From IMG/VR virus record IMGVR_UViG_2671180847_000010, positions 1-22,159 of that record: DNA of 22,159 nt; one strand, 5' to 3'. Origin of the DNA: a virus. Lineage: Duplodnaviria > Heunggongvirae > Uroviricota > Caudoviricetes. The notes below the pieces were generated by a model, which saw nothing but the letters and a program-made list of their open reading frames with translations, was not told the DNA's origin and did no database searches. The position numbers and the translations under genes were made by a program. Positions 4,671 to 8,808 of this stretch are shown piece after piece; the first letter of the stretch is position 1, and every line of letters starts with the position of its first letter.

Positions 4671-4928
4671 ATGATGTACAGCAAATACGATGAGGCGCAG
4701 TTCCACTTGAGGCTTACGCACGAGTTGCACGCTAAGATTAAGCAACGTGCAAAAATGAATAACAGGTCTATCAATTCCGAAATTGTGGCTACGATGGAAG
4801 AATCACTCTCCAAACCATCACCTGTAAGCGGGTATCGTGATGAAGAAGAGAGGCTGGCCTCATTAATCTCGGAACGAGTAAAAGAAGTTGTGGCTGATAT
4901 CCTTAGAAAAGAAAAAACCCGCAATTAA
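4671..4928 (+). CDS. mnt: Mnt-like ribbon-helix-helix repressor (immI-type)
   Basis: 85-aa product with an RHH N-terminus (FHLRLTHELHAKIKQRA..NNRSINSEIVATMEESL) and the segment SKPSPVSGYR, closely resembling P22 Mnt as recalled. SD GAGG 5 nt upstream of ATG 4671. The track's 217-aa ORF (4275..4928) is an upstream extension that overlaps the tailspike in antisense. Confidence 0.8.
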   Translation: MMYSKYDEAQFHLRLTHELHAKIKQRAKMNNRSINSEIVATMEESLSKPSPVSGYRDEEERLASLISERVKEVVADILRKEKTRN

Positions 4929-4936
4929 GCGGGTTT
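4915..4936 (-). terminator. Rho-independent terminator closing the minus-strand antirepressor operon; mnt stop codon lies in the loop
   Basis: Stem AAACCCGC / GCGGGTTT with 6-nt loop aattaa. On the minus strand the hairpin is followed by TTTTTTC TTTTC; on the plus strand the U-tract is poor. The mnt TAA (4926-4928) is in the loop. Confidence 0.75.
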
Positions 4937-4942
4937 AGTTGG

Positions 4943-5164
4943 TTAGTTATCAAAAAGTCCGTACGTTTCTTCTTCTTCAGGTGTAAGGGGAAGAATCTCT
5001 ACTCTATCTATAGATACCTTTTCAATGTACCCATGAGGTCTACTTAAAATTAAAGCTCTCTCATGCCACAGAACTCCAAGAATGTGATACCTTCCAGCAT
5101 CTCCTTTTACCCTGGCTCTTCCTTTGATTCTTGGCGGCATAATGCCATATCTTTTCTTTGCCAT
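4943..5164 (-). CDS. Hypothetical 73-aa protein, translationally coupled to the upstream antirepressor gene
   Basis: Start ATG overlaps the stop of the upstream gene (TAATG arrangement at 5162-5166); ORF ends just before the operon terminator. No recognisable domain. Confidence 0.5.
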   Translation of the reverse strand: MAKKRYGIMPPRIKGRARVKGDAGRYHILGVLWHERALILSRPHGYIEKVSIDRVEILPLTPEEEETYGLFDN

Positions 5165-5889
5165 TATGCAACATTGCTCCCATGAATCAGGTGTTGTAGT
5201 GCTTTAACACCCTCCGCATTGTAGCGGAATGCTTCCACCTGTTTGCTTGAATGCGCAGATTTATCCAAGAAGAACTTCCCGTACTGCTCAGTTTTGAGGT
5301 TGTTTGCGTTAGCAATGCGACCAATCTTGTTTGCCGTTACTCCAAGCTGCTCTGCAACCTCCCCTGCTGAGTAGTAATGCTCTTCTATTGCTGGAAGAGG
5401 TATTGCATTAAAACCAACTATCGGGTTGATTATGCTTGCTGCCGCAGTCTGCTTTGCTTCCGGCGCAAGATTTGGCATCAAATCTAACAGATTGGTAACA
5501 GCTTCAACCGTCATTTTCAATGTTCGAGCCTGGCGATACTCAACAAGTCCACTCGACGATTTACCGCTTTTAATGTGCGCTTCTTGCATACTTTCAAGTT
5601 TGTCTACAAGTGTTCGGCGAACTGCTTTAGATTCGCGAGCAGCAACACGAAGCGCCTGCTTGATAGTCATGGAGATAACATCAATGTCAGCCCCGTTTTT
5701 CCGACCTACACTTTTTGTGTAGGTCTCGCCCTCCAATTCATCCTCAATTTTCTCGATGAATTTGTTGTTACGTACTGATGGCTCTCCACATAACTTGCGA
5801 GCTTCATTAACCATCATCAGAAGACTTTGGCTGTCAATGGTTTTATCCGTGACAACGGATCCGATGTTTGCTACATTCTTCAAAGTCAT
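5164..5889 (-). CDS. Putative phage antirepressor (Ant/KilAC-like C-terminal region)
   Basis: 241 aa from ATG 5889 with SD AAGGAA upstream (track ORF begins further upstream at 5940). C-terminal segment YSAGEVAEQLGVTANKIGRIANANNLK... resembles KilAC/ANT antirepressor domains; domain call is from memory and needs a profile search. Confidence 0.7.
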   Translation of the reverse strand: MTLKNVANIGSVVTDKTIDSQSLLMMVNEARKLCGEPSVRNNKFIEKIEDELEGETYTKSVGRKNGADIDVISMTIKQALRVAARESKAVRRTLVDKLESMQEAHIKSGKSSSGLVEYRQARTLKMTVEAVTNLLDLMPNLAPEAKQTAAASIINPIVGFNAIPLPAIEEHYYSAGEVAEQLGVTANKIGRIANANNLKTEQYGKFFLDKSAHSSKQVEAFRYNAEGVKALQHLIHGSNVA

Positions 5890-5977
5890 TAGGCATTCCT
5901 TATGTGGTAGTAAGGGTGTGACATAGGCCGCCAGCAGCACACTGGCGGTTTTCTTTTTGCGCCGTCCGGCGCACCAA

Positions 5978-6604
5978 TCAATGAATCCATTCCTCGCCGC
6001 GCAGTTTTGTCAGCATTGGCTGAGCGTTCTTTACGACAAAATTGTTGGTATCAAGATTCTTCATTTCACGAAGAAGTGATTTCTTGGTTTCTTCTGACAT
6101 ATAGCGAGTCTCATATGCAATATCGTAAATTCTTCCTGAAAGCTCAGAACCAATTTGCTTCATTCCTGGGTAGATGTGTTTGCACATTTGTTGACTCTTC
6201 TCCATCCACAATTGTAAGTAGCAGAGATTAACCAGTTCTTCGTCAGTAAACTGTTTTGCAATCGGTGAGCATTCTGCCTGCCGATCCAAAATATCCAGCA
6301 CCCAGCGGCGGAACTCTTTGGCTACCGGAGTGCGAGCAAACATCGCGATTAGGTGGGCACCGCGTAGTGAGAAAACTCGCACTTTTTTGCGATAATTTCC
6401 TGAGGTACTCACTTCGAGTACCTGAGTCATTCCGGCGCTAAACTCATCGCTATACTTGTTATAAATCATTGTTACTGCACGGCTATTTGCATATTTAAGT
6501 GCAGATGCAATATTAGATGATGTAAACCAAACACCATGCATATCACGGGTGGGCACCAACTCAACTCCGTGGAAGTTGTAATCTGATTTTGCTACAATAT
6601 TCAT
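5978..6604 (-). CDS. Bro-N domain protein (antirepressor-like)
   Basis: Bro-N signature (..GVWFTSSNIASALKY..KKVRVFSLRGAHLIAMFARTPVAKEFRRWVLDIL..). Start placed at ATG 6604 preceded by SD AAGGAA; the track ORF starts at an upstream TTG (6709). Confidence 0.8.
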   Translation of the reverse strand: MNIVAKSDYNFHGVELVPTRDMHGVWFTSSNIASALKYANSRAVTMIYNKYSDEFSAGMTQVLEVSTSGNYRKKVRVFSLRGAHLIAMFARTPVAKEFRRWVLDILDRQAECSPIAKQFTDEELVNLCYLQLWMEKSQQMCKHIYPGMKQIGSELSGRIYDIAYETRYMSEETKKSLLREMKNLDTNNFVVKNAQPMLTKLRGEEWIH

Positions 6605-6677
6605 GTTAGTTTCCTTGCATACGGTTACTGACATAGAGGCCCGGTTTGTGTTCGCGCACTGCCGGGCTTCACTATTT

Positions 6678-6851
6678 TTATTGGATGACAACATCGCCCT
6701 TTGCCTCAAGTTTCATCAATAACTCCATTCGATAAGCTATCTCTGCCTGAATTGACCTATGGCATCTTTTTGCTGATTCGCGGATATGTGAATCAACCTT
6801 TTCTGTAAAACGAACCTGACGCGGCTTGATGGAAGATATCTTTTCAGTCAT
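6678..6851 (-). CDS. Arc-like ribbon-helix-helix protein (57 aa), first gene of the antirepressor operon; absent from the ORF track
   Basis: Hand translation of the minus strand: MTEKISSIKPRQVRFTEKVDSHIRESAKRCHRSIQAEIAYRMELLMKLEAKGDVVIQ. SD AGGAG 6 nt upstream of the ATG. RHH pattern (beta strand QVRFTEKV, then two helices) and RSIQAEIAYRME resemble P22 Arc RSVNSEIYQRVME as recalled. Below the track's apparent 60-aa cutoff. Confidence 0.6.
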   Translation of the reverse strand: MTEKISSIKPRQVRFTEKVDSHIRESAKRCHRSIQAEIAYRMELLMKLEAKGDVVIQ

Positions 6852-6950
6852 TATGCACTCCTGTTTTTGAAAAACTCATAATCTCACTTTTTGTAGTTTG
6901 ATTATTCACTCACACTCAGTATGAGTCAATGAATTTTTTATGGTGAACTA
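6852..6950. promoter_or_regulatory. Divergent control region between the antirepressor operon (-) and the CI-like repressor gene (+), with palindromic operator candidates
   Basis: 99-bp spacer between divergent start codons. Contains a 13-bp palindrome GTTTTTGAAAAAC (6863-6875) and an inverted repeat ACTCA-gta-TGAGT (6914-6926). Confidence 0.5.
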
Positions 6951-7592
6951 ATGAATTTTGACGATCAATTCCCATCAAGAGTATCTCTGGCAAGACAGTC
7001 CAGGGGTATGACGCAGGCGCAGTTGTCAAAATTAGCTGGTGTTGTTCAACGTCAAATAGCTGCATACGAGGGTGGTGAGGCTAAACCACGGCTTCGTGTA
7101 TTGCAGGCATTAGCCAACGCATTAGGCACTACGGCTGAGTGGTTAGCTCTGGGTGAAGGTCAGGGGCCTGGAACAAAAAACGTCATGCCTGACGTTCTGG
7201 TAAAGCAAATACCAATCCTCAAACTAGATGAAGTTATGCATTACCTAAACACAGGTGAACATTCATCGTCTAGATTTCATCCGGCAATATACAATGTTGG
7301 TGACTCTGCATTTGCATTGACTATTGAAGGTGAAGCTATGACTACAAGTTCAGGTATTAGCTTTCCCAGAGGATCAGTTGTCACGTTCAGCCCTCTAGTA
7401 AAAGCTAAAAGCAAAGATTATGTAATAGCATCATTGGATAAAGAGCAAATATTGAGCTTCAAGCAGGTTTACATTGGTGAAATAGAGACAAACTTAGTAT
7501 CCCTAAACCCAATGTATCCTAATATTCTTGTTAGAAATGAAGATGTTAGTATTTTGGCAACCGCAGTTTACCTTGAAATCCCGTTGCTTTGA
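6951..7592 (+). CDS. CI/LexA-like repressor: XRE-type HTH plus peptidase S24-like domain with Ala at the nucleophile position (predicted non-cleavable)
   Basis: N-terminal HTH (MTQAQLSKLAGVVQRQIAAYE). C-terminal region aligns by eye to lambda CI: DSAFALTIEGEAM vs CI DSAFWLEVEGNSM, SFKQV vs TFKKL, LNPMYP vs LNPQYP. Nucleophile position is Ala129 (codon gct at 7335-7337); Lys171 is retained; no Ala-Gly in the linker. Confidence 0.9.
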   Translation: MNFDDQFPSRVSLARQSRGMTQAQLSKLAGVVQRQIAAYEGGEAKPRLRVLQALANALGTTAEWLALGEGQGPGTKNVMPDVLVKQIPILKLDEVMHYLNTGEHSSSRFHPAIYNVGDSAFALTIEGEAMTTSSGISFPRGSVVTFSPLVKAKSKDYVIASLDKEQILSFKQVYIGEIETNLVSLNPMYPNILVRNEDVSILATAVYLEIPLL

Positions 7593-7652
7593 TATCCTTT
7601 AGGAAGCGACACATTATCATCCGGTGTTCTGCTCAAAACTAAGGAGGTTGGT

Positions 7653-8042
7653 GTGAAGCTATTTCTTGCTGCTATGTTCTTATTCATATCTTTTGGGGCT
7701 ACAGCAGAGTGCTGGGTCGTTGGAGATATGCGCGGAATAAGCTATTCAGAACGAAATAATTTCCATCCGGAAGAAGATGGTTTTAGTGGAACATTCATCA
7801 TTAAGACAAGCGGTGAAGATGCTAGCATCACATATTCTGGGACAGATGCGGGCGGCATGGCTTACAAAGTATTGTCTAAAAACTCCATCATAGGAATCGG
7901 CGCGAATGGCGAAACTCAACGCGTTATCGACTCATGGGTAATACATCCTACTGGAACAGTTTTAATGTCAAAAACCATTTCCGGTTATGGAAATATGGAT
8001 TCAACCAAAGCTTTTGTTGGAAAAGTAAAAAGAAAATGTTAA
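7653..8042 (+). CDS. Hypothetical exported protein (signal peptide), probably co-transcribed with the CI-like repressor
   Basis: GTG start 5 nt after a strong SD AAGGAGG. N-terminus MKLFLAAMFLFISFGATA-E looks like a Sec signal peptide with an A-x-A cleavage site; two Cys in the mature part. No terminator between it and the repressor gene. No recognisable domain. Confidence 0.7.
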   Translation: MKLFLAAMFLFISFGATAECWVVGDMRGISYSERNNFHPEEDGFSGTFIIKTSGEDASITYSGTDAGGMAYKVLSKNSIIGIGANGETQRVIDSWVIHPTGTVLMSKTISGYGNMDSTKAFVGKVKRKC

Positions 8043-8063: not shown

Positions 8064-8249
8064 TCAACAGGTTCCGCGCCCCTGAGTAATTCTGTTGCGG
8101 ATTTGCTTCTTGCGGTGGTTTAAGCTGGATAGCTTGGCTTCTGCTTCTGATATTTGCGCATCTAGATCTTTAAGCTCAAGATCTGAAAGTCGCTGGTCAA
8201 GCAGGGTTTGATTCAACTCAATGTTGTTCAGGCGTTCTTCTATGGTCAT
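8064..8249 (-). CDS. Hypothetical 61-aa coiled-coil protein
   Basis: ATG preceded by a strong SD (TAAGGAG, 6-nt spacer); heptad-like Leu/Ile spacing. It lies directly after a terminator U-tract with no room for its own promoter, so expression is uncertain. Confidence 0.35.
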   Translation of the reverse strand: MTIEERLNNIELNQTLLDQRLSDLELKDLDAQISEAEAKLSSLNHRKKQIRNRITQGRGTC

Positions 8250-8293: not shown

Positions 8294-8713
8294 TTAATCT
8301 TGCTTTGTAGACGGTATAAGGGATGCGTTTGCCTCTTTTGGCTTCAAGGTATACATCCCACCATTAAATGGATCAACAGCAAGCCAACCAATTAACCCAC
8401 CAAACACAAGGTTTCCACCAATATACCAACCATTAGCATTGGCTTTGATTGGCAGGGTAACTGGTTCGTACCCATCCTTCTCCATAGTGATCTGGTAGCT
8501 CTTTTTGCCAAAATAACTACCATCTGACTTGGCAAGAGTTACTCCTTGCGGGGTCTTACCTTGCGCAACAATCACGCCTGATTCGTCTTTTACCTTAAAG
8601 CTCGCACCGGAAGGATTGCTGTTCACTTGCACAAGCTGTGTTTCGTCACCAACAATAGTTGCGCACCCAGATAACATGATAGCGCCAGCAACGACGCTAA
8701 TAATCCTCTTCAT
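8294..8713 (-). CDS. Prophage lipoprotein with PEGA-like motif, insulated accessory gene
   Basis: MKRIISVVAGAIMLSG-C has a lipobox (LSGC) after a hydrophobic signal. Segment NPSGASFKVKDESGVIVAQGKTPQGVTL...KDGYEPVT resembles the PEGA motif. Start at ATG 8713 (track ORF starts 4 codons upstream at 8725). Own terminator downstream; 83-bp non-coding spacer upstream. Confidence 0.78.
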   Translation of the reverse strand: MKRIISVVAGAIMLSGCATIVGDETQLVQVNSNPSGASFKVKDESGVIVAQGKTPQGVTLAKSDGSYFGKKSYQITMEKDGYEPVTLPIKANANGWYIGGNLVFGGLIGWLAVDPFNGGMYTLKPKEANASLIPSTKQD

Positions 8714-8808
8714 ATCAATTTCCATATCTAAAAAACCGGAAACATCCTAATGACAAACCATTCAAATGTGAAGCACGAGATAAGATCAATCCATCCGTGG
8801 ACGACTAA

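Follow-up and report, generated by a model that had tools for sequence, protein, structure and literature searches.

A CI-type repressor with a pseudo-peptidase S24 domain divergent from an Arc-like/antirepressor operon in a P22-like prophage

The DNA analyzed here, called the window, is the 22,159-nucleotide stretch covering positions 1 to 22,159 of the IMG/VR virus record IMGVR_UViG_2671180847_000010 (Caudoviricetes) and belongs to a P22-like (Lederbergvirus) prophage. Its plus strand carries, at 6951..7592, an ATG-initiated gene for a protein of 213 amino acids (aa) that combines a helix-turn-helix (HTH) domain with a pseudo-S24 domain, as judged from the open reading frame (ORF), Pfam, and a structure model. 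The gene lies between homologues of a DNA-transfer gene (gene-16-like) and of the tailspike gene (gene 9), a position that corresponds to the immI or "ant moron" slot according to the annotated neighbors in Escherichia coli HS and phage JEP4 and to the ORF map. On its left, a divergent operon begins with an Arc-like ribbon-helix-helix (RHH) gene and continues with antirepressor genes. A previous reading of the sequence by a model (the original prediction) had described a lambda-CI-like repressor with a naturally dead autopeptidase at this place, and Pfam, phmmer, and the predicted structure all agree on a CI-like protein of the HTH-plus-S24 type.

The HTH domain spans approximately residues 7-67 (6969-7151) and is followed by a flexible linker (approximately residues 68-85) and by the S24-fold domain at residues 86-209 (7206-7577). 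In Pfam, HTH_3 (PF01381) scored at residues 14-65 with an E value of 9e-13, over its curated cut-off, and Peptidase_S24 (PF00717) scored at residues 108-206 with an E value of 1.3e-12 and 47.9 bits against a cut-off of 23.3; no NCBIfam model reached its cut-off for the protein. The best phmmer match among PDB sequences was the C-terminal domain of lambda CI (residues 108-206, E 1e-7), and the HTH part matched the N-terminal domain of the 434 repressor (E 4e-6). An AlphaFold2 model built from 23 family sequences had a mean predicted local distance difference test (pLDDT) score of 86.5, with a low-confidence linker at residues 77-82. Full-length lambda CI (3bdn) was its top PDB structure match (E 2e-11), and Foldseek placed its C-terminal domain on lambda CI 1f39_A with a root-mean-square deviation of 1.8 Å over 98 columns, a template modeling (TM) score of 0.84, and 32% identity. 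The LexA S119A structure (PDB 1jhh) was among those listed in the same fold search. This structural comparison holds at the domain level, and the residue register was taken from sequence alignments.

In the phmmer alignment, TIEGEAMT of the window protein is paired with EVEGNSMT of lambda CI, and SFKQV is paired with TFKKL; MAFFT reproduced this register in each of three independent sequence sets that included lambda CI and E. coli LexA. Judged from similarity of this order, the register of Ala129 and Lys171 relative to lambda CI is beyond doubt. Both HMMER and MAFFT put Ala129 (codon gct, 7335-7337, plus strand) at the position of the serine nucleophile (S149 in lambda CI, S119 in LexA), and the protein has no serine in that column. 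Lys171 (codon aag, 7461-7463, plus strand) is aligned with the general base (K192 in lambda CI, K156 in LexA). The Ala-Gly scissile-bond columns of the MAFFT alignment are occupied by Val95-Met96 (7233-7238, plus strand), which fall within residues 92-101; this segment is modeled as helical, whereas LexA and CI have a strand-loop there. The sole Ala-Gly of the protein is at residues 29-30, inside the HTH, and residues 31-213 contain no AG or CG dipeptide. The profile searches and the alignments with CI and LexA have thus upheld the catalytic part of the original prediction, namely, a serine replaced by alanine, a lysine retained in SFKQV, and a linker devoid of Ala-Gly. The product is a CI-type repressor with a pseudo-peptidase S24 domain from which the serine and the scissile bond are gone and in which Lys171 is kept. 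The LexA S119A and lambda CI S149A mutants are non-cleavable, and by analogy with them the window protein should be unable to cleave itself and should escape RecA-stimulated self-cleavage, as had been predicted.

Loss of the cleavage apparatus extends through the family. Among 67 distinct family sequences, a single one (P0016) has Ala-Gly at the scissile columns, and it has the serine and the lysine as well. The serine was lost, to alanine or glycine, in at least three separate lineages: alanine occupies the nucleophile position in the window clade, in another, independent clade (L051/L053), and in a divergent one where arginine also stands in for lysine, and two sequences have glycine there. 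The lysine is replaced by arginine, methionine, or valine in several lineages. P0003, which is 81% identical to the window protein, has serine (TCT) and is nested among sequences with GCT or GCA alanine codons, implying that the nucleophile position toggles by single-base changes. The question of whether alanine is conserved among homologues, raised in the original prediction, accordingly has a divided answer: alanine is found in the window clade and in other clades, but P0003 has serine, as does most of the family. On the strength of these alignments, loss of cleavage is a trait of the family and not an accident.

As a control, the family profile was run against 1.84 billion cluster representatives, and 137 full-length HTH-S24 proteins were retrieved. 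Serine and lysine were both kept in 33 of the 35 representatives with Ala-Gly at the aligned site but in only 60 of the 102 without it, which indicates that scissile-site loss goes with dyad decay. The 33/35 classical CI-type representatives showing V-x-A-G together with serine and lysine also indicate that the alignment does detect existing cleavage sites. Within this same alignment, Ala-Gly was present in 33 of 89 more distant representatives versus 2 of 48 family-proper sequences. Nor is a dead S24 nucleophile rare: serine was absent from 21 of the 137 representatives (~15%), most of which had alanine instead, and naturally dead S24 domains appear from such alignments to be common among HTH-S24 regulators.

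Of 5,426 complete E. coli genomes, 28 carry a copy of the gene at 98-100% identity, as do 24 IMG/VR contigs. The copy in E. coli HS is 100% identical and is labeled merely "helix-turn-helix domain-containing protein," and phage JEP4 carries an identical protein labeled "repressor protein C2." The codon for Ala129 is GCT or GCA in relatives as low as 72% identity. A sequencing accident as the source of Ala129 is ruled out by its recurrence in E. coli genomes, JEP4, and IMG/VR contigs. The reading frame is unbroken in all copies. By the Nei-Gojobori method, the window and JEP4 genes differ by a synonymous divergence (dS) of 0.07 and a nonsynonymous divergence (dN) of 0; for more distant pairs in the family, dS is saturated and dN lies at 0.06-0.2 in either domain. 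Where dS was computable, dN/dS was ~0.05-0.13, a ratio to be read only as an upper-bound impression because dS was saturated for most pairs. Both the HTH and the S24-fold domains are under strong purifying selection. Other relatives differ in architecture: many of those of 260-290 aa (P0012-P0021 and L044-L068, e.g., L009:6001-6819) have an extra C-terminal extension of ~50 aa after the S24-like domain, with a heptad-like, charged pattern that is not found in the window clade. Among the hits of the representative search, five very long proteins of 640-2,332 aa (P0023, P0025, P0039, P0044, and P0049) contain a region that matches the family profile in its HTH part and is repeated in 7-16 tandem copies.

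The operon transcribed away from the repressor gene, on the minus strand, is led by a gene for a 57-aa protein (6678..6851). Profile comparison with the PDB matched this protein to pArc (7e-5), AmrZ (2e-4), Arc (3e-3), and Mnt (0.011), and Pfam Arc scored in 9 of 17 members of its family; on these profiles and on synteny, it is an Arc-like RHH DNA-binding protein. The next gene (5978..6709, minus strand) encodes a Bro-N plus P22AR_C antirepressor, identified by Pfam and by a match to the PHROG anti-repressor Ant (1e-65); its true start is probably internal to the ORF, since RefSeq gives a length of 208 aa in E. coli HS. An antirepressor-like gene follows (5164..5940, minus strand; PHROG 1726 "anti-repressor," annotated "KilA protein" in JEP4), with a likely start at the ATG of residue 18, and a 73-aa gene taken from the ORF list and assigned to phrog_4977 (4943..5164, minus strand) ends the operon. 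In E. coli HS, an IS3-family element splits the second antirepressor-like gene (L001, 17138-18285); the window copy is intact. The annotated neighbors, Pfam, and profiles support the original prediction of a repressor gene divergent from an Arc-like/Bro-N/Ant operon in an immI-equivalent slot.

This arrangement is strikingly constant. The HTH-S24 gene was divergent from an ~57-aa gene in 10 of 10 annotated contexts, and a small gene pointing away from the family gene lay beside it at 44 of 45 distinct IMG/VR loci, mostly across 97-100 bp. Antirepressor genes came next in 19 of the 20 loci in which downstream genes were checked (9 of 10 among the sampled IMG/VR loci). Each cassette contained one to three antirepressor-domain genes, with the domains Bro-N, P22_AR_N, P22_AR_C, pRha, ORF6N, ANT/KilAC, and KilA-N. 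Cassettes occupied P22-like immI slots (the window, JEP4, and L009), siphovirus tail gene clusters (L003, L010, L082, and L084), and sites beside the integrase (L005-L007), and one prophage (L008) had, besides the cassette, a lambda-type CI gene of its own adjacent to N. Given this range of sites, the repressor, the Arc-like gene, and the antirepressors form a mobile, self-contained module that moves across phage backbones. The immI location, held to be unusual in the original prediction, is one of many in which the same three-part cassette recurs.

The repressor gene and the operon are separated by a divergent control region of 99 bp (6852..6950), whose length is kept at ~97-100 bp in most of the family. 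It contains a leftward sigma-70 promoter-like site, TTGACT-17-AATAAT (6901..6929, minus strand), which has 10 of 12 consensus matches, scored best among four promoter-like sites in a 4-kb scan, and reads into the Arc-like/antirepressor operon. The -35 block of this promoter (ATGAGTCAATG on the plus strand) is the best-conserved non-coding element family-wide. A 13-bp palindrome, ACTCAGTATGAGT (ACTCA-GTA-TGAGT; 6914..6926), lies between and overlaps the -35 and -10 elements; CTCA-N3-TGAG is retained in four of five clade members, and the palindrome is a candidate operator. A second conserved block, AAAACTCATAATCTCAC (6871..6888), with repeated CTCA half-sites, lies in the leader of the leftward operon and was picked out as a footprint by comparing clade members with saturated synonymous sites; it is a candidate second operator or could be part of the repressor's own promoter. 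When ~30 intergenic regions were compared, only the -35 block and the ACTCA-type element recurred, and the operator arms varied by clade. No LexA box (CTGT-N8-ACAG) was found in 6852-6950 at one mismatch or fewer. An SOS-controlled antirepressor, the analogy drawn in the original prediction, is rejected for this locus on that ground.

The interpretation that we favor, with moderate confidence, is that the window protein is a dedicated Mnt-like maintenance repressor of the antirepressor cassette, uncleavable and built on a CI scaffold. JEP4, which has the identical protein, encodes in its immC a separate, canonical C2 with an SAG cleavage site, a GDSM serine, and a TFKK lysine, so the window protein is taken as a second, accessory repressor; by analogy, it is not the master repressor of its prophage, whose own immC lies outside the window. 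The original prediction had implied that it is the target of antirepressor control in the manner of a master repressor, a view at odds with the separate immC-type repressors of JEP4 and L008. In the proposed scheme, the HTH-pseudo-S24 repressor and the operon of an Arc-like RHH gene and one to three antirepressor genes would be read outward from the shared 99-bp region. The repressor would act as a dimer of the lambda-CI/434 type and, in a lysogen, would sit on operators overlapping the strong leftward promoter (6929-6901), silencing the antirepressors in the way that Mnt does in P22 immI. Feedback shut-off after infection would come from the Arc-like protein, as in P22. With an uncleavable repressor, the lock on the antirepressors would be blind to RecA and SOS, and it would be the separate, canonical C2 encoded in immC that mediates SOS induction of the prophage. 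Dimerization and cooperative binding would explain why the S24-fold domain has been kept. We infer DNA binding at the candidate operators, repression rather than activation, and the dimerization role of the C-terminal domain from these features, and the neighboring antirepressor genes are most likely kept off by the window repressor.

Four observations weigh against this interpretation. A true Mnt homologue of 85 aa is encoded nearby (4671-4928, plus strand; 1mnt, E 8e-17, phmmer versus PDB), so that control of the operon by Mnt is possible, but its gene adjoins that of the tailspike, at the operon's distant 3' end, which speaks against such control. Conservation of the left arm of the palindrome (13 bp) stops at the closest clade, which leaves the operators ambiguous. 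A consensus scan found no convincing rightward promoter for the repressor gene. Finally, ~60-70% of family members keep both serine and lysine though they have no Ala-Gly, and the retained residues may still have a role, either at a non-canonical cleavage site or in the structure.

The divergent pairing of a transcription factor with a small ORF across a fixed short spacer resembles the TF-smORF modules for induction described in phages of Vibrio and Aeromonas (PMC10432266), and on that model the window protein would be an activator or sensor that switches the antirepressors on at an SOS-independent cue, perhaps via its pseudo-peptidase domain. Purifying selection on a dead C-terminal domain would fit ligand or partner binding, and no derepression cue is otherwise apparent. 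Activation nevertheless seems unlikely to us: the small ORF encodes an Arc-like DNA-binding RHH protein and no novel antirepressor peptide, the leftward promoter is near consensus (10/12) and should fire without an activator, the palindrome between -35 and -10 has a repressor-type position, and the layout mirrors the divergent mnt and arc-ant of P22.

The window protein could also be a target of the adjacent antirepressors, with Ant inactivating it in a self-amplifying switch; it would also guard lytic genes, as an additional immunity repressor. The Gifsy phages offer well-documented examples of antirepressors that inactivate non-cleavable repressors (PMC3121763), and the two to three different antirepressor-type proteins per cassette go beyond the need of one target. 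The chance that this is the protein's role is nonetheless small: JEP4, which encodes the identical protein, possesses a full canonical immC whose C2 is cleavable, members of the family turn up in tail clusters and beside integrases, well away from lytic-promoter regions, and no LexA box is present to start the loop.

It is very improbable that the protein is still cleaved and SOS responsive, whether it cuts itself through an unconventional nucleophile or site or is cut by another S24 protease, such as C2 or LexA, acting in trans. Lys171 is kept, threonine and serine residues follow Ala129 (GEAMTTSS), and most relatives have serine and lysine but no Ala-Gly, which hints at a non-canonical site. 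However, both the nucleophile and the scissile dipeptide are gone, the segment of the would-be site is predicted to be helical rather than to form the strand-loop of LexA and CI, serine and alanine interchange within the clade while lysine gives way to arginine, methionine, or valine elsewhere (a sign of relaxed constraint on catalysis), and serine-to-alanine mutants of LexA and lambda CI are not cleaved. The last alternative, a decaying relic carried as non-functional moron cargo with the serine-to-alanine change as part of pseudogenization, recalls the high genetic flux of the ant-moron region, the degraded ant and arc of other P22-like phages (PMC2629481), and the IS3 disruption of the adjacent antirepressor gene in E. 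coli HS, but it is hardly credible: the strong purifying selection in both domains largely refutes it, the frame is intact in all copies, and synteny, spacer, and promoter are strictly conserved over relatives at 35-99% identity.

Among known systems, P22 immI (Mnt-Arc-Ant) is similar in its slot between gene-16 and gene-9 (tailspike) homologues, in the divergence of a maintenance repressor from an operon led by an Arc-type RHH gene with a P22AR_C/Bro-N antirepressor, and, by analogy, in a promoter that overlaps the presumed operator and a repressor that would not be SOS cleavable. It differs in that the window repressor is a 213-aa HTH-plus-S24-fold protein whereas P22 Mnt is an 83-aa RHH protein, in that the window operon has two antirepressor-type genes and a 73-aa ORF, and in that the window has its true Mnt homologue as a separate gene and the cassette also occurs outside P22-like phages. 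With lambda CI, 434 CI, and P22 C2 (MEROPS S24), the window protein shares the two-domain HTH plus S24 fold and the general-base lysine, but it has alanine for serine, Val-Met for Ala-Gly, and a cleavage segment predicted to be helical, and it would regulate an accessory cassette rather than act as the immC master repressor. The S24 "non-peptidase homologues," catalytically degenerate domains of the LexA/CI type, likewise have an S24 fold in which the catalytic dyad is not intact.

Gifsy-1/2/3 GfoR-GtgR, 186 Tum, and N15 AntC are comparable in that a repressor without self-cleavage and antirepressors occur together in a phage, with antirepressor genes in the late or tail region. In those systems, the master repressor is non-cleavable and the antirepressor is under host LexA, whereas in the window cassette there is no LexA box, the master C2 is cleavable (as seen in JEP4), and the non-cleavable protein is the putative regulator of the antirepressor itself. 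The nearest regulatory precedent is Fels-1 FsoA, an antirepressor under a phage repressor and not LexA (Lemire et al., PMC3121763).

The window system is real and biologically coherent, an uncharacterized variant of known regulators. Antirepressors can inactivate the repressors of co-resident prophages, and an SOS-blind lock on them would therefore bear on cross-talk between prophages, on immunity to superinfection, and on induction behavior in polylysogens of E. coli and Salmonella. A specialist would not be greatly surprised by a dead serine or by the concept of an SOS-blind repressor; the cassette is coherent and testable. It defines a portable three-part unit of pseudo-S24 repressor, Arc-like protein, and antirepressors that moves between podovirus and siphovirus backbones. 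It also bears on annotation: of the pipeline labels given to the family, "helix-turn-helix domain-containing," "repressor C2," and "LexA family protein," the last two wrongly imply SOS cleavage.

The family further offers a natural case of an enzyme becoming a pseudoenzyme, in which the cleavage site decays first and the Ser/Lys dyad later while the scaffold is still selected. A bolder extension, which we regard as rather doubtful, is that the family is an evolutionary series: a LexA-like self-cleaving sensor that freed antirepressors on DNA damage, an ancestor proposed because P0016 still has Ala-Gly, serine, and lysine, would repeatedly have turned into an SOS-blind lock, with the pseudo-peptidase now the receiver of another signal or partner and the cassette a portable switch for SOS-independent induction or anti-immunity.

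In 2008, the E. coli HS-1 "ant moron" was noted to need a control mechanism other than that of P22 (PMC2629481, the epsilon34 paper), and the window repressor is a candidate regulator for this open question of antirepressor control in the HS-1-type ant morons of P22-like phages. The same published analysis found arc to be apparently lacking in the HS-1-type moron (PMC2629481); the Arc-like 57-aa gene corrects that view. The literature search returned no characterization of the repressor family, with the HS-1 moron drawn only in the 2008 epsilon34 paper; work on the antirepressor of the Stx phage Phi24B sheds no light on this module. The family is widespread and unstudied, and to our knowledge its obligatory Arc-like/antirepressor linkage and its repeated, independent dyad losses, like the family itself, are undescribed in the literature searched.

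Beyond the far end of the operon, the Mnt homologue (4671-4928) lies between the operon end and the tailspike start and is convergent with the operon. With it, the region has two maintenance-type repressors, and this one may act on what is left of a Pant-like promoter directed into the tailspike gene. The 73-aa ORF and the Mnt homologue are separated by a GC-rich, terminator-like hairpin at 4915-4936, with T-runs on either side, which looks like a bidirectional terminator serving both convergent transcription units.

On the other side of the repressor gene, a plus-strand gene (7653-8042, phrog_2651) encodes an exported 129-aa protein with an N-terminal signal-peptide-like segment. Its pairing with the repressor, to which the original prediction had given weight, does not persist: the gene has its own promoter-like site at 7589-7617, is absent from JEP4, gives way to a different gene in E. 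coli HS, and elsewhere is on the other strand or different. It is shared with the Salmonella phages Emek and ST-35 and represents a moron in its own right rather than a repressor partner. Two minus-strand genes follow, a 61-aa coiled-coil-like gene (8064-8249, phrog_7586) and a 143-aa lipoprotein-like gene with a weak Cor-type signal-peptide match (8294-8725, phrog_6823), both homologous to epsilon34 genes 14/15.

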